Positions 52,345 through 63,300 of a stretch of DNA of 64,000 bases are shown here, in pieces. Below the pieces are notes generated by a model, which was not told where the DNA came from, made no database searches, and saw only the letters and a list, made by a program, of their open reading frames with translations. The DNA is from an uncultured Methanosarcinaceae archaeon. GTDB lineage: Archaea > Halobacteriota > Methanosarcinia > Methanosarcinales > Methanosarcinaceae. Both the position numbers and the translations under genes were made by a program. The stretch covers positions 32,001 to 96,000 of the forward strand of contig CAVTET010000001.1 in assembly GCA_963733675.1 (NCBI GenBank). Reading direction: 5' to 3'. Positions within the stretch are counted from its first letter, which is position 1. Each line of letters begins with the position of its first letter.

Positions 52345-53310
52345 TTATACATGCCTTATTTCGAAAGATTGAAACAAAATTTCGGGATAAATTTCACCGC
52401 TCGAGATTGTTTTTTTGTTTTTAAGGTCGTTTACATTAAGCCTAGCAGGCGCAAAAATACCCTCATCAACCTTATAAAAGTCAAACCCTGCTTCTTTGAA
52501 GGTCTGATAAAATGGTTTCCCGAAATGGTGGGAATTTATAGAAGGTACCTTCTGTACGAATTCTTCAAGTTCGGCCAGTTCTCCGTTAAAGCACAATGTA
52601 TAGTTTGTTTCGCCGCCGTAAATCACACAGTCATTGGTTGAACCCATGCACTGAATATCGTTTCCGACTATCGGGGCAATGGGAGCAATGCCGTAGCCGC
52701 TCTTAATGCAGTTGATGTCAAAGCCAATTGACTTGAGTTTGTGGATTCCAGCTTCCACGACACGGGCCGAAATTTGGACAGAGCCGGCAATAGAGGCTGT
52801 GGGAGCAACTGCAATCATCACGTTTTCAGGATCCACGCTGCAGTGCTTTGCAATGTAATCGACAACTCTTTCATCAGGTAGTCTATTGGATTCTATGAAC
52901 AGAATTGCAGCTTGGAAGTCATCGTGATATCCTATCTCTTTATAGAGTTCTCTGGGTTTTAAGGCGAGTGCACGCGCAGGACCTGACCCCATTCCGAAGT
53001 AATCTCCGACAGAGATCCTCCAGCCTGCATACTGGGAAGCCATACAAGCAATTACCGGATTGTCAGTTGCTATCTGAATGGCAGGCCACTTGAGACCTTT
53101 CAGATCAAAGGTGGTATATTGTAGGTCAGCAAGGTCAGCTAAGCAGAGTCTCGCCAGGTACAGCCCGGCTTCATATCCCCCATCTTCTTTAACTCCGCAG
53201 TCAATAACTGTAGCCCCATTTTTGAGCTTTGTAACTTCGGTGTTTAGGTCTTCGCTCCAGTCGAGCATTTCTTCCATGACATATGATCCCATTTCGTTGA
53301 CACTTATCAA
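52345..53310 (-). CDS. mch: Methenyl-H4MPT cyclohydrolase
   Basis: '[10 protein letters not shown]', 'GSGPARAL', '[10 protein letters not shown]', 'FAPA'. Confidence 0.96.
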
Positions 53311-54594: not shown

Positions 54595-55896
54595 TCACTT
54601 CTTCTTTCGGATCTTTGCAAAAAGCTGTCTTAATGTATCCTCGTTACTTCTTGTGAACTCAAATGGAGAACTTGTAAAAGGTTCAAAGTGTACTGCTACG
54701 TCATCTTGCCTGTAAAAAGTCCCGTCGCATTCCATGGCATCAATGACTCCAGGAAGCACGATGTCTGAAATAACTGTTGTCAGGCAAGGTGCAATGTCTA
54801 GGCAGACGATGGGTATTTTGGCAAGGTAGGTAGCGCAGTCCGCAGGGAGATTGCTAATCAGATCAGAACACACTACAAGAGCTGCATCCACATCTCTTTC
54901 CCGAAGCATATCTACAGTCGTAAATTCTCCGGGATTGAAGCGTGGATATCCCCGCGTGAAATCGAGCCCGAAAGGATAGCCATACATGTAGGAAGCCACC
55001 TGGTTAAAACCTGCCACGTTGCAGTGGCTATGGAGAACTCCAAGAGTAAATTTAGTAAATTTATTAATTTCTTTTACTAAATTCATGACAATTTCCGCGT
55101 TCCTATGCTTTCCGATTGATGATGAAAGTCCTAAACCTACCGAAATGAAACCGAAGTTGCAATTTTTCATAATATCGAGCATCTGTTCCACTATTGAAAT
55201 AGGAACACCTGTGACCTCTTCAACTGAGGGGTGGGGTTTTTTTCCATGCAGAAGCGTAAGAAGTGCGCTGATAAGTTCATAATCGGAATTAGGCTTTAGC
55301 TGCACGTGCAAATCTGAAGCTTCAGTAGTTGGAGTTTTTCTGGGGTCCAGTGTGATGATCATTCTGTCGAAACGACCACGTTTAGTCCAATATCCACGAG
55401 GGAAAACGTCATACCTTGACATCTGCCTCGGAATGGACTCAAGAGGGTTGGTTCCCCAATAGACTATTAGGTCACATCTGTTTTTTTTCTGCCCTTCTGT
55501 TGCAGCGACTTTCCCTGCTTCCTGGATTCCCATAACTGTTGGCCCATGGTAGAGAGATGTATTTGAGTCTACAACTGCACCAAGGTATTCTCCAATATGG
55601 AACCCCACTTTGTGAGCCTCACAAGAGGTCTCGCTGCCCAAGAAGAGCAAGGGCCGTTTTGCAGAAGTAAGGATATCTGTGGCTTTTTCAAGAGCTTCAT
55701 CCCAAGCTACAGATCTCAATTTTCCCCCTTTCTTTATAAGAGGTTGCCTGAGTCGCTTGGAACTTACAACCTTCTTAAATTTGGCATTTCCAATCTTACA
55801 TGCATTTTTAGTTTCAATTGTCCCATCCCCAAGTTCTATTTGGATGTCATCGCAGGCAGCCCCACAAGCCGGACAGACTATATTTTTAAATGCCAT
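54595..55896 (-). CDS. fmdB: Formylmethanofuran dehydrogenase subunit B homolog with substituted metal ligand
   Basis: N-terminal 'CPACGAACDD..NACK' 4Fe-4S motif, 'YWGTNP', 'NPGEFT'. 'LYHGP' replaces CHGP and 'LHSHCNVAG' replaces RGHxNV. Confidence 0.93.
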   Translation of the reverse strand: MAFKNIVCPACGAACDDIQIELGDGTIETKNACKIGNAKFKKVVSSKRLRQPLIKKGGKLRSVAWDEALEKATDILTSAKRPLLFLGSETSCEAHKVGFHIGEYLGAVVDSNTSLYHGPTVMGIQEAGKVAATEGQKKNRCDLIVYWGTNPLESIPRQMSRYDVFPRGYWTKRGRFDRMIITLDPRKTPTTEASDLHVQLKPNSDYELISALLTLLHGKKPHPSVEEVTGVPISIVEQMLDIMKNCNFGFISVGLGLSSSIGKHRNAEIVMNLVKEINKFTKFTLGVLHSHCNVAGFNQVASYMYGYPFGLDFTRGYPRFNPGEFTTVDMLRERDVDAALVVCSDLISNLPADCATYLAKIPIVCLDIAPCLTTVISDIVLPGVIDAMECDGTFYRQDDVAVHFEPFTSSPFEFTRSNEDTLRQLFAKIRKKK

Positions 55897-56287
55897 ATTC
55901 ATTCCCTCCTACATAAACTTTCAGGACTACATCTTCGGCGCTCAGTACCCTTTCTTCAGTGGGCTCAATTTCCACTGGAGCACCTTTGTAGAGAGGGGAT
56001 CCAGTAGAAAGGGTGTCAGGGTCCACAACTACATTGGACCAGATCGCTTTTGGCATGAATACATTCCCTGGTCTGACTGAATTCATGCATTTTGCATAAA
56101 CTACAACCGAATGTTTACCGTTTTTACTTGTTATCTCAACTTTCTCAGGAGAGCAGAGAGCCACAAAATCAACTGGGGAAATCCAGCAGGTTGCACACTC
56201 CTTAGCATACTCAGCCTTGAATTTATCCCAACCCTTTACAAGTCTGCCTTCTTCAATCGTACTTCCAGTAATGAGTAATACTTCCAT
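55886..56287 (-). CDS. fmdD: Formylmethanofuran dehydrogenase subunit D
   Basis: 'MEVLLITGSTI', 'IWSNVVVDPDTLSTGSPLYKG'. Confidence 0.92.
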   Translation of the reverse strand: MEVLLITGSTIEEGRLVKGWDKFKAEYAKECATCWISPVDFVALCSPEKVEITSKNGKHSVVVYAKCMNSVRPGNVFMPKAIWSNVVVDPDTLSTGSPLYKGAPVEIEPTEERVLSAEDVVLKVYVGGNEYGI

Positions 56288-56297
56288 ACATCTGACC

Positions 56298-57125
56298 TCA
56301 AAGCTCGGGGTTTGTATCCACAGCCACATAAAGCACTCCTTTTGCTCGCGTGCTAATCGCATAATCCCCTATGAATTTTTTGAATTTACCTTTTAACTCA
56401 ACACCACCAAGAGTGAGCCCTTCTTCAATGCCTACATATTCGAAACCCGGTGAAAAGCGTTCGATTTTACCCCCGATAACTATGGTTCCGGCTGTCATTT
56501 CGGCACCTACCCCTCTAAGAGCTCTGCCTTTTACAATGATGAGTCCGCCGTTCTGGTGAATTCCACAGAAGCCTTCAACATTGCCTTCCACAATGATTTC
56601 ACCTCCATCCATTCCACCTCCGACCTGATGTCTGGCCGAGCCTTCGATTACAATCCGCCCACCTTTCATACCGTGCCATTTGCCTCTGTAAGCACAGCCA
56701 ACATGATCTCCAGCATTACCTTTAATGTGAAGTAGTCCACCTGTCATTTCCATGGCTGGCCAGGAATCCATATCTCCGGCAACGAAGATTTTGCCACCTT
56801 TCATTCCAGTTCCTAAATGTATGCCTACAGAACCCTCAATTTCAATTTTTCCTGCACTCATATATCCTCCAATTCTTTTGACCCTGGTTACATCACCTTT
56901 TATGCGGATTAGGGTCTCAGCTTCAGAAATATCTCCATTTCCTTGTACTTCAAAAAATTCGCAGAGAGGATATGTCCTTGGCCCCTGCCAGATGGACATA
57001 TTTCCGATTTCTTCCGCACTTTTACCAGCAAAAGAGTCCGGAGTTATAATATCTGCCTCCAGTTTAATATCGACATTCCTTTTCGGAATAAGTATTACTT
57101 CTTTCATCACTTCACCTCTCACCAT
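56298..57125 (-). CDS. fmdC: Formylmethanofuran dehydrogenase subunit C
   Basis: GxGMxGG beta-helix repeats, 'GCAYRG..GMKGG'. Confidence 0.95.
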   Translation of the reverse strand: MVRGEVMKEVILIPKRNVDIKLEADIITPDSFAGKSAEEIGNMSIWQGPRTYPLCEFFEVQGNGDISEAETLIRIKGDVTRVKRIGGYMSAGKIEIEGSVGIHLGTGMKGGKIFVAGDMDSWPAMEMTGGLLHIKGNAGDHVGCAYRGKWHGMKGGRIVIEGSARHQVGGGMDGGEIIVEGNVEGFCGIHQNGGLIIVKGRALRGVGAEMTAGTIVIGGKIERFSPGFEYVGIEEGLTLGGVELKGKFKKFIGDYAISTRAKGVLYVAVDTNPEL

Positions 57126-58866
57126 TAACCTTTATTGGAGTCGGGTTTGTGAGATACTTTTTGGGAGTTGGGTAGTTGGCAAAGCCAAGGGTATAGTACC
57201 TGAACCATTTCTTCACATCGGCCAGCATCTCCTTTTCCGTTTCGTCCTCTACATGCACTTCGGAATAGTAAGTCTGCTTTTCAGGAATAGAGACGATCTC
57301 TCCTTTAGCAACAACAATTTCGCCTCCCTTTATGGTATATTCTGCCTTCCTGAAGGTTCTGAGGAGAGCTTCGTAATTGTTTGGATCAAGTTGCTGCGGA
57401 TTTATATTGTAAATTGTAATATCTCCGTCAGCACCCACTCCAAGAGAGCCTTTTCTGTGCGCCATGCCAATTGTCCGGGCAGGGTTGGCTCTAGTTAGGA
57501 TCGCAAGATCATAGAGGGAAAGTTCCCGTTTTACTCCTCCTATCTCACTTCTATCATTGGCCCATTTGTGGCATTCACTTATGGTTTGCTTCCTGTAAGC
57601 TTCAGACATGAGCCAGGTAATGACTTCCGGATATTTAGTAAACGGGCCACCATTGGGGCTATCCGTTGTCATAATGGTCTTCCAGGGGTCGTTGATTAGC
57701 AGGAGACATTCAAGTCCCATCGCCCACTGCACGCTGTGCACTGGATTGGACTTGAGGTAGGTAAAGGGCAGGACACCTGAGCCGCCCTCCATCTCAACGT
57801 CTTTATTTGACCACTTGTTTCCTGTAAGTTTGTAAATATCGTAAATGGCAGGCCCGTCTCCCGTCATGGCTGTAGCTTCACCGAAAGGCACGCATCCACT
57901 GTCTATTACGACATGATCCTTGTTGTTGATATATCCTGCAAGTTCTTTAACACCTGATTCAAAATCTGCCCAGGTGGTGCCTCCAAAACTATTAAACATA
58001 AGATGGGCAAGGTATACTGAACGATTCCTTGTTGGATCCATTTTGATTTCAGCCCATTCCACGTCCATGTTCTGCTTGGGCTTTATGCCATCAAGAATTT
58101 TGAGAGATTCTTTTGTAATAGTATAGCAACCCGGATGTCCTAAATTGTTTGCGTGCAAGTGAAGAGGCATCGGCATGCCCAAACGTTCGTTAATCTCGGA
58201 AAGTCCTTTTATGATCTCTCTTGGGGTAATTTCAAAATGGATGTTGGCTTCATCAAGAGACCTTACGTTTTTTCCCCAACCCCAGTTTTCGACTCCTGCG
58301 GGATTGACGCATTTGACTCCATAAGTCTTATGAGTGTTCATCATCCAAGACACGTAAGCAGCAGCCTTTTCGATATCACCTTCTCGGAGGTAGCGCATCA
58401 TAAAGAAATTGTTCCCGAGTTCCAGATACCCTCCCATATCAACAATTGGAGTTGCACGCATTTCTTCATGTGTATGGCGAGCTTCTAGAGGGGGAATTGC
58501 AGCTTCAAAGATAGTTGTATAACCCATTGCTGCGTAATCATAACCCTGTTTGTAAACTGAGGGGACGGTATAACCTGAACCTGAGTGAAGGAGTGAAGTT
58601 TTCTGGATAGTTGCTTTATAGTGGTCTTCCGGGCGCATCATCCTACCGACGTTAACCTTTGAGCCTGCAACGTGAGAATGTGAGTCGACCCCCCCGGGCA
58701 TGACAGTCATTCCGAAAGCATTAATAACCGTTCCTGTTTTCAGTTCGGCAGTAGGAAGTTCTGTCACAACTTTTCCATCCTGGACGAAGATATCCATTAT
58801 TTCGCCCTTTATTTCGTTGAGTGGGTCAAAGACATATCCATTTTTGATCACAACTGTTCCGGTCAT
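57112..58866 (-). CDS. fmdA: Formylmethanofuran dehydrogenase subunit A (binuclear amidohydrolase)
   Basis: 'DSHSH', 'VKCVNP', 'HLHANNLG', 'LAHLMF', 'TTDSPNG' all present. Confidence 0.96.
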   Translation of the reverse strand: MTGTVVIKNGYVFDPLNEIKGEIMDIFVQDGKVVTELPTAELKTGTVINAFGMTVMPGGVDSHSHVAGSKVNVGRMMRPEDHYKATIQKTSLLHSGSGYTVPSVYKQGYDYAAMGYTTIFEAAIPPLEARHTHEEMRATPIVDMGGYLELGNNFFMMRYLREGDIEKAAAYVSWMMNTHKTYGVKCVNPAGVENWGWGKNVRSLDEANIHFEITPREIIKGLSEINERLGMPMPLHLHANNLGHPGCYTITKESLKILDGIKPKQNMDVEWAEIKMDPTRNRSVYLAHLMFNSFGGTTWADFESGVKELAGYINNKDHVVIDSGCVPFGEATAMTGDGPAIYDIYKLTGNKWSNKDVEMEGGSGVLPFTYLKSNPVHSVQWAMGLECLLLINDPWKTIMTTDSPNGGPFTKYPEVITWLMSEAYRKQTISECHKWANDRSEIGGVKRELSLYDLAILTRANPARTIGMAHRKGSLGVGADGDITIYNINPQQLDPNNYEALLRTFRKAEYTIKGGEIVVAKGEIVSIPEKQTYYSEVHVEDETEKEMLADVKKWFRYYTLGFANYPTPKKYLTNPTPIKVNGER

Positions 58867-59904
58867 TTAGTTCACCTCTCTTTTCACAAACCAGATCGCA
58901 TCAACAGGACAAATAAGGACGCATATTCCATCTTCCCCGCAGAGGTCTTGGTTTACAACAAAAATTTTTCCATTTTTGACCTCCAGAAGAGCTTTTTCGT
59001 CCATGTTATTTAAGTGTCCTGCTGCAAGCTCACGGTTATTGAGAGCATTTACCGGACAGACAATAACGCAGTTCCCACAGCCTAGGCATGCATCTTCATC
59101 CGTTTTTATGCATACACGATGCGTAGATTCTGGAACAGGAGCTTCGAGTATCTTTTTCTCTAGGATACTCTTTTTCTCCAAACTCGGCATAATTGAAGTT
59201 TTTCGAACAGTAATAGCGTTCACAGGACAAGCAACTGCACAGGCTCCACAATAAATACATGCATCTGGACGGTGAGTTATCTTTTCGACTCTTTCTCCAG
59301 AGTTGGCCTTTTTGTTAAAAAGAGCATTTGCCGGACAGACTTCTACACAGGTATGGCAGGTTTGACAGACATCCTCATCCAAGATCCATCGTCCTTTAAA
59401 GGGCTTTTCCACGAAAATTGCATTCATCGGGCACACTGCAGCACACCAGCTACAGTGAACGCAGCACGCCGAATTAATGAGAGTCTTTCCAACCAGCTTC
59501 AGGCTTCCATCCTTTGAAATATCCCGGACTACCTCAATACAGTTTCTTGGGCAGATATCCTCACAAAGCCCGCAGTGAACACAGTTTTCATTCACTGTCG
59601 TCGGTTTCATGGCTTTGAAAATATAAGACATGTCATTAAGGATTTTTCCTTCTTGCCTCAACTCAAGAGCACCTGTGGGACAAACTCTTGCACAAATTCC
59701 ACAAATAAGGCAATCTTCCCCCTTTCTTTCCAGAAAATTCGCATCCAACAACTTTCTTACTACAGCCCCTACAGCACCTATTGAAAGGCCACTTTTGGGG
59801 CATGCTTGTACGCAAGTCCCACAGCCGATGCATTTTTCAGGTATATAGATTAGCTGTCGGTTTTTTTTTCCGGAGAAGACCGAAAATCGTTCCCATTCTT
59901 TCAT
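58867..59904 (-). CDS. fmdF: Polyferredoxin subunit F
   Basis: Eight CxxCxxCxxxCP-type motifs (the last as CGEDGICVLICP). Confidence 0.93.
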   Translation of the reverse strand: MKEWERFSVFSGKKNRQLIYIPEKCIGCGTCVQACPKSGLSIGAVGAVVRKLLDANFLERKGEDCLICGICARVCPTGALELRQEGKILNDMSYIFKAMKPTTVNENCVHCGLCEDICPRNCIEVVRDISKDGSLKLVGKTLINSACCVHCSWCAAVCPMNAIFVEKPFKGRWILDEDVCQTCHTCVEVCPANALFNKKANSGERVEKITHRPDACIYCGACAVACPVNAITVRKTSIMPSLEKKSILEKKILEAPVPESTHRVCIKTDEDACLGCGNCVIVCPVNALNNRELAAGHLNNMDEKALLEVKNGKIFVVNQDLCGEDGICVLICPVDAIWFVKREVN

Positions 59905-59922: not shown

Positions 59923-60200
59923 TTATTCTGTGCATGCGCTGCAAAGTAGCTAATTTCCAATGTTCGAATACCTGGCTTGGAGTTCTTGATAGTTCGTCTT
60001 CTTCTCTGAGTCTAGGTTTCTCCGAATACCTCTTATGCTGTAGACTCCTTCAAGAGCCTTTTTGCTTATTATGACCGTTATTTTCCTCATGTTACTGATG
60101 ATCACATCAATTGTTTTCGATTGTAGCTACAGCAAGGAACTAAAATGATGCGTGAGTGCCGCATTGAGTCTCATATATCAGATATATACGTTCACCTCCT
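59923..60200 (-). pseudogene. Probable fmdE remnant
   Basis: Occupies the fmdE position of fmdEFACDB; terminal 'GN*LLCSACTE*' CxxC just before the fmdF RBS; orphan RBS GGAGGTGA near 60195; much shorter than a full gene. Confidence 0.4.
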
Positions 60201-60499
60201 CGAATATCGACCATCTGACTTGTAATATTAATATATAGATGCCGGTTAATGCTCCAAAGTTAAGAAAACCATGAAAGAAAATTACCTATTAGATTTGTGA
60301 AAGCACCTAAGGCTCTTTTCCCTGTTCCATCAGGTATTTATCGGAATTTTATTTTTTTATACAATGTGGATAACCATGGGTTTTATTCTTAAATTTTCTT
60401 AAACATGAAGTAGAAAGATACGAGGAGGCAACATAGAAACATATTGCAAGAAATCTTGTTTTATGAATGTAAGATGCAACATATCCATGTGAAAGTAAG

Positions 60500-60879: not shown

Positions 60880-61710
60880 ATGGTTAAGATTGGGATTATA
60901 AAAATGGGCAACCTGGGGATGAGTCAGGTTATTACTCTGATCCAGGATGAAATGGCAGCTAGAGAGGGAATCACAGTAAGGGTATTTGGAACAGGCGCTA
61001 AGATGGGCTTAGCCGAAGCTTTGGATACTGAAAATTTCAAGCAGTGGCAAGCAGACTTTGTGATAATTATCAGCCCTAACGCAACAGCTCCAGGACCCAC
61101 TGCAGTCCTTGAAGCATGGAAGAACGTGCCATGCATTGTGATCTCAGATGGGCCAAAAAAGAAAGAAGCTAGAGATGCTTTGGAGCAACAAGGCTTTGGA
61201 TATATTATCCTCCCCGTAGATCCGCTCATCGGAGCAAAAAGAGAGTTTCTTGATCCAGTGGAAATGGTAGTCTTCAACGCTGATGTGATGAAAGTTCTAT
61301 CTATTTGTGGTGTTGTAAGACTTCTTCAAGAAGAACTCGACAAAATTACAGCGCAGCTTGCTTCCAAAAAGTCCGAAAAGAAACTAGAGCTCCCACATAT
61401 TTTTGCAAAACCAGAAAAATGCATTCAACATGCAGGTTTCTCAAATCCCTATGCGAAAGCAAAGGCTCTTGCCGCCCTTCACATAGTTGAAAAAGTAGCA
61501 CAGGTTAATTACCCTGTCTGTTTCACGCTAAAGAATCTTGACCAAATATGTCTTACAGCTGCAGCAGGACATGAAATAATGGGAGCTGCTGCGCATCTCG
61601 CAACTCAGGCAAGGGAAATTGAAAAATCCAATGATACTGTCTTCAGACAATCCCATGCAAAGAGCGGCATCCTGCTGACGAAAACTAAATTATATGAAAA
61701 ACCAAAATGA
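60880..61710 (+). CDS. mtd: F420-dependent methylene-H4MPT dehydrogenase
   Basis: 'KMGNLGMS', 'GTGAKMG', 'DPLIGAKREFLDPVEM', 'NPYAKAKA'; start MVKIG at 60880. Confidence 0.96.
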   Translation: MVKIGIIKMGNLGMSQVITLIQDEMAAREGITVRVFGTGAKMGLAEALDTENFKQWQADFVIIISPNATAPGPTAVLEAWKNVPCIVISDGPKKKEARDALEQQGFGYIILPVDPLIGAKREFLDPVEMVVFNADVMKVLSICGVVRLLQEELDKITAQLASKKSEKKLELPHIFAKPEKCIQHAGFSNPYAKAKALAALHIVEKVAQVNYPVCFTLKNLDQICLTAAAGHEIMGAAAHLATQAREIEKSNDTVFRQSHAKSGILLTKTKLYEKPK

Positions 61711-62258: not shown

Positions 62259-62406
62259 GAAATTTAGGATTATTCATTGAAGAACATTCTCCTGAATTTT
62301 TGATTTATTGCAGTCAATTACCAGTATAATTGATGATAAATTTTTGCGATCTCAGAATATATTCAAAAATCTCTAAATTAACAATGATTGAAAAAGAGGG
62401 ATTTTT

Positions 62407-63300
62407 ATAGAAATCAATGGAGTAGAAATCGAAAATACATATGCAGAAGCTTTTCAGATCAAGATTGCACGAGTGCTCATCACAGCCGTTACAAAACGCT
62501 GGGCTCTTGTGGCAGCTACTGAAGCTACAGGCTTCGCAACGTCTGTTATAATGTGTCCTGCAGAAGCAGGAATCGAAAAACTAGCAGATCCAAGTGAAAC
62601 CCCTGATAAGAGGCCTGGAGTCTACATCCAAATCTGTAATTTCAAATATGAAGCTCTGGAAAAACAATTACTTGAAAGGATCGGGCAATGTATACTTACA
62701 GCTCCTACAACTTCAGTTTTCAATGGGCTTTATGAAGCTGAAAAGCAATTTAACATCGGCTCCAAACTCAAATTTTTTGGGGATGGTATGGAGTCAGAAT
62801 CCCAGATTGCTGGTCGCAAAGTATATAAAATTCCTCTAATGGGAGGAGATTTCCTGAATGAAGTAAATATCGGAGCTGTAACTGGAATTGCAGGAGGCAA
62901 CTTCTTTATTTTTGGAGACTCGCAGATGAGCGCCCTTACAGCAGCCGAAGTTGCTGTGGATGCAATTGCAGAGCTCGAAGGCACAATTACCCCTTTCCCT
63001 GGTGGCATTGTAGCTAGCGGATCCAAATCCGGAGCAAACAAGTACAAATTCCTGAAGGCTACAACTAACGAAAAATTTTGCCCCTCCATAAAACACAAGA
63101 TTGAGGACACTGAAATTCCAGCAGATGTCAATTCTGTTTATGAAATAGTTATCAATGGGCTTGATGAAGTAAGTGTTAAAGCTGCCATGAGAGCAGGAAT
63201 TAAATGTGCTGTAACTGTTCCAGGCATCAAGAAAATCACCGCAGGAAACTACGGTGGAAAGCTCGGGAAATACCAGTTCAAACTGCACGACCTATTCTGA
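62407..63300 (+). CDS. ftr: Formylmethanofuran:H4MPT formyltransferase; apparent start codon is ATA
   Basis: In-frame (I)EINGVEIENTYAEAF from 62407; 'SVIMCPAEAG', 'PFPGGIVASGSK', 'AGNYGGKLG'. Confidence 0.95.
   Translation: MEINGVEIENTYAEAFQIKIARVLITAVTKRWALVAATEATGFATSVIMCPAEAGIEKLADPSETPDKRPGVYIQICNFKYEALEKQLLERIGQCILTAPTTSVFNGLYEAEKQFNIGSKLKFFGDGMESESQIAGRKVYKIPLMGGDFLNEVNIGAVTGIAGGNFFIFGDSQMSALTAAEVAVDAIAELEGTITPFPGGIVASGSKSGANKYKFLKATTNEKFCPSIKHKIEDTEIPADVNSVYEIVINGLDEVSVKAAMRAGIKCAVTVPGIKKITAGNYGGKLGKYQFKLHDLF

Follow-up and report, generated by a model that had tools for sequence, protein, structure and literature searches.

The window analysed here, a stretch of 64,000 nucleotides from an uncultured Methanosarcinaceae archaeon (G000:C1:32001-96000; the genome G000 amounts to 3.92 Mb in 15 contigs, with an estimated completeness of 92%), carries on its minus strand, over positions 54595-59904, the genes of a formylmethanofuran dehydrogenase (Fmd) in the order fmdF-fmdA-fmdC-fmdD-fmdB. 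It belongs to a clade of six genomes within Methanosarcina in which the B subunit, FmdB, lacks both the cysteine that ligates the molybdenum or tungsten (Mo/W) of the active site and the catalytic arginine, in which no canonical B subunit was found, and from which genes for the synthesis of the Mo/W-bis-pterin cofactor are missing. To judge from these sequences, the CO2/formate redox half-reaction of the complex is lost, as a first-pass annotation of this DNA had proposed. The five genes remain open and under purifying selection. The best reading, to which we would give an even chance, is that the pterin-free complex would be left with the hydrolysis of formylmethanofuran (formyl-MFR) to formate and would serve anabolism.

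The fmdB gene (54595..55902, minus strand, with an ATG at 55902) encodes a formate-dehydrogenase-type subunit of 435 amino acids with a dead metal site. This protein is a member of the one_C_dehyd_B sequence family (TIGR03129, 598 bits for a cut-off of 328), encoded within an A-C-D-B gene set, and the closest FmdB of solved structure is 9sw6_J (609 bits); it scores 375 bits to 5t5i_B and 28 bits to FhcB 6s6y_B. Codon 118 (55549..55551, minus strand) is TAC and puts a tyrosine in the place of the Mo/W-ligating cysteine, the motif reading LYHGP. Codons 291-293 (55024..55032, minus strand) are CAT AGC CAC, i.e., His-Ser-His instead of Arg-Gly-His, in a motif that reads HSHCNV. The matching sites of 9sw6_J read ICHGP and IRGHCNVAG. 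According to the available part of PMC6926001, Cys118, His119 and Arg288 of FwdB are catalytic residues, a list to which the accessible portion of PMC11656701 adds His290; Arg288 of FwdB is Arg291 in the FmdB numbering used here. Two further replacements affect residues that are invariant in canonical Fmd and Fwd enzymes, a tyrosine replaced by phenylalanine at codon 322 (TTC, 54937..54939, minus strand) and a histidine replaced by asparagine at codon 351 (AAT, 54850..54852, minus strand). Position 351 is also replaced in the degenerate orphan FmdB paralogues described below.

A comparison of 42 canonical Fmd and Fwd sequences gives 98 invariant or nearly invariant columns, and the only changes found throughout the clade in these columns are C118Y, R291H/N, Y322F and H351N. 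These four changes, which include the known catalytic cysteine and arginine, are more than chance would produce. In 19 canonical orthologues (class A), codon 118 is TGC or TGT, codon 291 is CGT, CGC, AGA or CGA and codon 292 is GGC or GGT, so that the changes at these three codons can be explained as single G-to-A transitions. The first-pass annotation had already noticed this path, along with Tyr116 and His289-Ser290 in a full-length FmdB; these are the same codons as Tyr118 and His291-Ser292, counted from Met3. It had also taken the motif PRQMSRY for a deviation, which does not hold: Gln160 is the normal residue in every Methanosarcina Fmd-type sequence examined, and PRHMSRY is confined to the Fwd class and one outgroup. 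Across the six genomes of the clade, codon 291 is CAT in four and AAT in two, codon 292 is AGC, GGC, GCC or TCC (Ser, Gly or Ala) and codon 293 is TAC (Tyr) in one. This variation shows that the former redox site is no longer constrained.

Besides G000, the clade comprises five species-level genomes of the same genus (G055, G064, G019, G067 and G066), whose FmdB proteins are 86-97% identical to that of G000. Tyr118 is encoded by the same TAC codon in all six, and R291H/N is likewise found in all six. An independent soil DNA run (X3) provided 13 contigs that are 99% alike or more and show zero differences from the window sequence; they cover 55027-55032 and, flanking codon 118, positions 55540 and 55554. 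An assembly error, for which the first-pass annotation had advised a check of the codons, is ruled out by the codon common to six genomes together with these contigs, and both Tyr118 and His291-Ser292 stand. Whole-operon comparisons cover the five genomes of the clade that offer full context. The gene order fmdFACDB is common to the clade and to canonical class A Methanosarcina, with which its FmdB is 79-83% and its FmdA 83-86% identical. In a quick tree, the Tyr clade groups beside the orphan FmdB classes B and C (Shimodaira-Hasegawa approximate likelihood-ratio test, SH-aLRT, 94, not starred), a grouping that may be due to long-branch attraction. Synteny and the single-step path from TGC to TAC favour a change of the operon fmdB in place.

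The second line of evidence is the absence of any replacement for this subunit. Searches of G000 gave one match each to the FmdB protein, TIGR03129 and PF00384, i.e., no second FmdB or FwdB, whose possible presence the first-pass annotation had left to be checked. A hidden second enzyme in G000 is ruled out as far as protein, TIGR03129 and PF00384 searches reach. A canonical Fmd or Fwd B subunit was not found in any of the six genomes: G055, G064, G019 and G066 have the Tyr-type FmdB and an orphan, 33% identical, without the His and the Arg, while G067 has the Tyr type only. The other genomes of the genus contain two to six FmdB matches each, namely canonical Mo-type proteins, a Fwd type that is 36% identical and degenerate orphans.

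The third line of evidence concerns the cofactor, whose synthesis genes had likewise been singled out for a search. MoaC is found in 51 of the 59 genomes of the genus, and the eight without it are the six of the clade and two fragmentary assemblies, both with a canonical FmdB. MoaE is found in none of the six clade genomes vs. six of six canonical ones. No MoaA above the cut-off and no MoeA_N was found in either of the clade genomes examined, G000 and G019, whereas all three canonical genomes examined have both. Furthermore, the two neighbours of moaC in a canonical genome are found in G000 on a single contig with about 330 bases between them, so that moaC was deleted rather than left unassembled. 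Thus, by its gene content, the clade cannot make the Mo/W-bis-pterin cofactor, and the absence of the cofactor itself would follow from the missing genes.

The other parts of the complex look intact. The amidohydrolase subunit FmdA (57112..58866, minus strand, 584 amino acids; TIGR03121, 840 bits for a cut-off of 393; 620 bits vs. 5t5i_A) keeps H63, H65, K185, H236/H238, H288 and D402, which are invariant in five clade and eight canonical sequences and align with the FwdA/FhcA ligands. The available part of PMC6926001 lists these ligands of the binuclear-metal site as HxH, a carboxy-Lys, two His and an Asp. The four cysteines of the N-terminal [4Fe-4S] cluster of FmdB are all present (CxxCxxxC...C). 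The polyferredoxin subunit FmdF (58867..59904, minus strand, 345 amino acids; NF042909 FwdF, 225 bits, below the cut-off of 375; eight Fer4 stretches) has seven CxxCxxCxxxC motifs and an eighth of other spacing, as in eight canonical orthologues. The retention of these three features, noticed at first from G000, thus extends to the clade and canonical alignments. The beta-helix scaffold subunit FmdC is encoded at 56298..57125 (minus strand, 275 amino acids; TIGR03122, 293 bits for a cut-off of 131). FmdD, the subunit with the pterin-capping domain, is encoded by a frame at 55886..56362 (minus strand) that matches NF042908 over residues 26-151 with 65.6 bits (below the cut-off of 175) and PF01568 with 41.7 bits; as the family match opens at Met26, its start is likely at 56287.

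No stop codon interrupts the five fmd genes (1,772 codons) in the five clade genomes compared. Selection was estimated by the ratio of non-synonymous to synonymous divergence (dN/dS), as the median of pairwise Nei-Gojobori counts over ten clade pairs and 28 canonical pairs (21 for ftr). The clade and canonical values are 0.277 and 0.113 for fmdF, 0.127 and 0.039 for fmdA, 0.175 and 0.088 for fmdC, 0.26 and 0.095 for fmdD, 0.169 and 0.036 for fmdB, and 0.096 and 0.036 for the formyltransferase gene ftr, the pairwise dS within the clade being about 0.3. If the genes were neutral, about 29 new stops per lineage would be expected in the operon (6.6 in fmdB, 6.0 in fmdF and about 2 in fmdD), i.e., about 144 over the five lineages; this estimate takes half of the pairwise dS for each lineage, weights transitions twofold and ignores indels. 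The neighbouring fmdE and a spare copy of mtd have accumulated stops. The two- to fivefold relaxation of every subunit suggests that the complex has a less important role than before. Thus, the upper C1 branch is under real yet weakened purifying selection, as would suit a pathway whose central catabolic role has given way to a lesser one.

That dN/dS rose throughout the genome is ruled out as an explanation by mcrA (0.08-0.10) and mcrG (0.02-0.04), which in three clade pairs do not exceed the canonical medians (0.134 and 0.092). A third neighbouring frame gave 0.12-0.18 in the clade vs. 0.039 in canonical genomes, while the fourth proved to be spurious and antisense.

How the complex could work without its cofactor can be outlined as follows. 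By sequence and gene content, FmdB is unable to hold or use Mo/W-bis-pterin, which leaves the CO2/formate half-reaction without a catalyst; the only remaining chemistry would be that of the intact FmdA, formyl-MFR + H2O <-> formate + methanofuran (MFR). The methyl group released by acetate cleavage would enter as methyl-tetrahydrosarcinapterin (methyl-H4SPT) and pass in the oxidative direction through Mer, Mtd, Mch and Ftr to formyl-MFR, from which formate would be released. This route would yield reduced coenzyme F420 (F420H2) and formate for PurP-type purine enzymes, and an anabolic or overflow role would replace the central catabolic one. FmdB, FmdD and FmdC would be mainly a scaffold, as FhcB and FhcC are in bacteria, and FmdD, the FmdB cluster and FmdF could be kept for the folding or assembly of the complex, or for a redox role.

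The genes of the rest of the route are there. MfnB, for methanofuran synthesis, is found in all six clade genomes (split in G067), Mer in all six and MtrA in five. The ftr gene (62407..63300, plus strand; TIGR03119, 420 bits), encoding formylmethanofuran:tetrahydromethanopterin (H4MPT) formyltransferase, is single-copy in G000 and lies 2.5 kb upstream of the operon on the opposite strand in five genomes. The genes mtd (60880..61710, plus strand; NF002162, 397 bits, with a match that starts at Met22) and mch (methenyl-H4MPT cyclohydrolase, 52345..53310, minus strand; TIGR03120, 456 bits) also adjoin the operon. These are second copies, the other mtd of G000 lying at C1:125385-126281 (84% identical) and the other mch at C4:482919-483881 (89% identical), and the operon-adjacent mtd is interrupted by in-frame stops in G019 and frameshifted in G067. 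This weakens the argument that could be drawn from the clustering of the pathway.

Regarding the ftr gene itself, no ATG, GTG or TTG stands at the conserved N-terminus (window positions 62389-62475); the frame opens after a TGA at 62389, with a GAGGG upstream, and its start is likely the ATA at 62407. This site is ATG in six of seven canonical genomes, and it is ATA as well in the canonical G006, so that the feature is not specific to the clade.

The trimethylamine methyltransferase MttB is found in none of the six clade genomes vs. six of six canonical ones. Canonical genomes have three copies of MtaB each; in the clade, it is absent from G000, G055 and G067, G064 and G066 have it in broken form, and G019 alone has it intact. 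The cdhA gene is found in four of the six, G000 included, [NiFe]-hydrogenase large subunits in all six, and mcrA in three of the five searched (all but G055), the misses being the least complete assemblies. This suggests an acetate-centred lifestyle, unusual for the genus, with acetate as the likely main substrate. A demand for formate is also suggested: PurP-type genes, sought in four clade genomes, number two in each of G000, G019 and G066 and one in G064. In Methanocaldococcus, PurP reportedly uses formate and ATP. Searches for pyruvate formate-lyase (PFL) in G000, G019 and G064, for PurT in five genomes and for a formate dehydrogenase (Fdh)-type protein in G000 all gave nothing. With PurP-type genes present, PFL not found and no Fdh-type protein, the clade would need formate without having another source of it. 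G066 carries a PFL-like sequence that stops interrupt and that runs over several frames (G066:C7:314446-316014).

A stronger proposal can be put forward, somewhat short of an even chance: that the complex may be a working archaeal formyl-methanofuran hydrolase, a young and independent counterpart of the bacterial Fhc complex that arose within Methanosarcina by pterin loss with FmdD, the FmdB cluster and the polyferredoxin still in place, and the sole cellular source of formate.

Several observations weigh against hydrolysis as the remaining function. His119 and at least 88 of the 98 family-invariant positions of FmdB are unaltered in the clade, so that the pterin pocket may not have collapsed. 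The eight cluster motifs of FmdF, the [4Fe-4S] cysteines of FmdB and FmdD are retained though a pure hydrolase needs none of them. Constraint is two- to fivefold weaker on each subunit, 3.3-fold for FmdA, so that no subunit is singled out as the one that is kept. The six genomes are assemblies of 73-92% estimated completeness, none of them shown to be closed. Finally, the formate/nitrite transporter family (PF01226) was found in none of five genomes, a result that is uninformative as one canonical genome is among them.

The retained iron-sulphur parts also suggest the alternative that survives best, although it is improbable: the complex could be kept for another job, e.g., with the Fe-S chain of FmdF and FmdB carrying or taking up electrons, or with the complex offering a docking site to Ftr or further enzymes; catalysis by FmdA would be incidental in that case. 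The Fe-S motifs of FmdF and FmdB are intact in five or six genomes, fmdF and fmdD are open despite the stops expected of neutral genes (about six and two per lineage), and the retention elsewhere of orphan FmdB proteins that lack the cysteine, without fmdACD, hints at a use of their own. Against such a job stand the invariant ligands of FmdA and the dN/dS of fmdA, the lowest among the five genes; methanofuran synthesis and a single-copy ftr would also be pointless without turnover of formyl-MFR. Furthermore, no partner was identified for such a job.

It is less likely still that the operon is a dying relic, on which selection ended with the loss of the cofactor and whose genes are not yet broken. 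Several traits of the clade would be expected of such a relic: dN/dS is two to five times the canonical value for the subunits, positions 291-293 drift, three of the active-site changes are explicable as single G-to-A transitions, and fmdE, the spare mtd and mttB, as well as mtaB in G064 and G066, are lost or broken. However, the active-site change is common to six species, so that all of the divergence within the clade came later, and over that time, at a pairwise dS of about 0.3, dN/dS stayed at 0.13-0.28, far under 1, and zero stops arose vs. the approximately 144 expected, while unselected neighbouring genes gained stops. Relaxed selection, which the first-pass annotation had offered as an alternative, is therefore not the whole story, and the ratio near 1 across the operon that it had named as a refutation of its reading is not observed.

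An inverse use of the same chemistry appears about as unlikely as a relic. Free formate could be taken up, condensed with methanofuran at FmdA and reduced to methane with electrons derived from H2, which would bypass the reduction of CO2. The intact FmdA site, the [NiFe]-hydrogenase large subunits in all six genomes and the retention of Mtr, Mer, Mtd, Mch and Ftr would suit this direction. Moreover, the available part of PMC11656701 reports that FmdA of the normal enzyme condenses formate with MFR, formate accumulating in a small internal cavity and rapid consumption of formyl-MFR favouring the reaction. Against such a use, no gene of the formate transporter family was found, and constraint on the pathway is relaxed and not at a catabolic level. 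The condensation of formate with MFR is also known from its thermodynamics to be endergonic.

That the complex would still be a true dehydrogenase, by means of a scavenged pterin or a different arrangement of ligands, is very improbable: the unaltered His119 and family-invariant positions of FmdB and the retained FmdD and Fe-S chain would fit it, but the metal-ligating cysteine and the catalytic arginine are both lost, four cofactor-synthesis genes are missing, position 291 alternates between His and Asn, and we know of no uptake of this cofactor in archaea.

With hydrolysis to formate as the preferred reading, the complex can be compared with known systems. It shares its gene order, Fe-S motifs and FmdA ligands with the canonical FmdFACDB of Methanosarcina (relatives of 9sw6 and 5t5i), from which it differs by the replacement of Cys118, Arg291, Tyr322 and His351, a decayed fmdE, the lack of pterin synthesis in the host and weaker purifying selection. 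The available part of PMC6926001 describes in Fhc of Methylorubrum extorquens (6s6y) a B subunit without the catalytic Cys, the Arg and pterin, an A subunit that is an intact amidohydrolase and a scaffold made of B and C, all of which recall the clade complex; formate is the product of Fhc and is the product expected here. However, Fhc as described there has no Fe-S domain in B, no D cap subunit and no polyferredoxin, whereas the clade complex retains all three, and His119, present in the clade FmdB, is missing from FhcB. The formyltransferase (FhcD) is built into Fhc, whereas ftr of the clade adjoins the operon without being part of it. By descent, the clade FmdB does not belong to the FhcB lineage (28 bits to FhcB 6s6y_B vs. 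375-609 bits to archaeal FwdB/FmdB), and, unlike that of Fhc, its loss is recent and within one genus. "Convergent Fhc-like" thus seems a fair functional analogy and does not imply membership of Fhc.

The nearest precedent is Methanosphaera, which, according to the available parts of PMC13135261, PMC9723798 and PMC5563889, lost moaABC/moeA-type genes and kept Fwd/Fmd and the pathway, for which an anabolic role was proposed. Methanosphaera differs by its phylum, its animal gut habitat and its growth on H2 and methanol, whereas the clade comes from soil and peat and G000 has cdhA and neither mtaB nor mttB. In the same family as the clade, Methanimicrococcus blatticola lost moa/mob/moe as well as CO2-reducing and methyl-disproportionating growth, as the available part of PMC9723798 states; it also lost fwd/fmd, ftr, mch, mtd and methanofuran synthesis, which the clade retains. 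A literature search of limited extent found no description of a Methanosarcina without molybdopterin synthesis or of an archaeal pterin-free Fmd complex. The novelty lies in the combination: a loss inside Methanosarcina, in free-living soil and peat species, that strikes the cell's only Fmd, with a whole complex that is still selected and close canonical relatives.

Methanosarcina is regarded as a metabolic generalist, whereas in this clade, by its gene content, both the reduction of CO2 to methane and the oxidation of methyl groups to CO2 are out of reach, which bears on the reading of Methanosarcina sequences in wetland and soil data. It also offers a natural pterin-free Fmd whose divergence from well-studied relatives, themselves open to genetics, is only about 20%. 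This gives an easy handle on what FmdA, FmdC and the Fe-S chain do once the redox site is gone, and on how Fhc-type systems could have evolved. If the complex is a hydrolase, C1 oxidation would end at formate, not CO2, in a soil and peat lineage, and the first steps from a CO2-reducing Fwd/Fmd to a formate-releasing machine would be on view.

Sequences of the clade occur in soil and peat metagenomes of several studies (X3, X13, X16 and X17). Contigs of three metatranscriptome libraries from two studies cover 26 of 30 bins each, which is compatible with expression, DNA carry-over being possible. X13 and X16 leave 56365-56895 without cover, and the RNA runs leave 59728-59904 without cover. Runs with small shares (X18-X20) were left out of the evidence, as was a 90%-alike contig of X13 that spans codon 118 and has no difference at 55549-55551 among the rows listed.

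Just upstream of fmdF lies a pseudogene of fmdE, the head gene of the canonical operon (59962..60333, minus strand). It has 34% identity over 125 amino acids to canonical FmdE and several in-frame stops, and remnants with stops are found at the equivalent place in G019 and G064.

Orphan paralogues of FmdB are frequent in the genus, many Methanosarcina having one or two per genome (loci L033, L034, L038-L046 and L022-L024). These proteins (classes B and C) are 71-79% identical to the operon FmdB, have Gly-Asn or a short deletion at positions 118-119 and Gln at 351, and keep Arg291 in 13 of 14 cases. Their genes have no fmdFACD beside them and occur in genomes that also possess canonical Fmd/Fwd and pterin synthesis. 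In G065 (82% complete), a canonical and a Gly-Asn FmdB gene (G065:C22:95533-96835 and G065:C28:2528-3830; L093, L094, L098 and L099) are each split over two frames, which may be due to frameshifts or assembly errors.

A third, FwdB-like orphan is only 31-34% identical (L049, L050, L057, L058, L060, L062, L064, L066, L068, L070 and L095-L097). It has the cysteine in 11 of 13 cases, Leu, Phe or Gln for His119 and Val or Ile for the arginine. It is open in four clade genomes that are unable to make pterin, one of which, G019, has a short ferredoxin-like frame directly upstream of it; G000 and G067 gave no match.

In the wider FwdB family, 123 of 150 representatives (P0001-P0150) cover both sites, and 19 of these 123 keep Cys-His...Arg, the residues being called from pairwise BLAST alignments at 26-50% identity, some of them possibly misaligned. 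FwdB-family matches that lack the cysteine are also noted in the available part of PMC10100899. Most of the representatives retain the N-terminal CxxCxxxC motif, and the distant representative P0086 reads Tyr-His...Asn, as the clade does.

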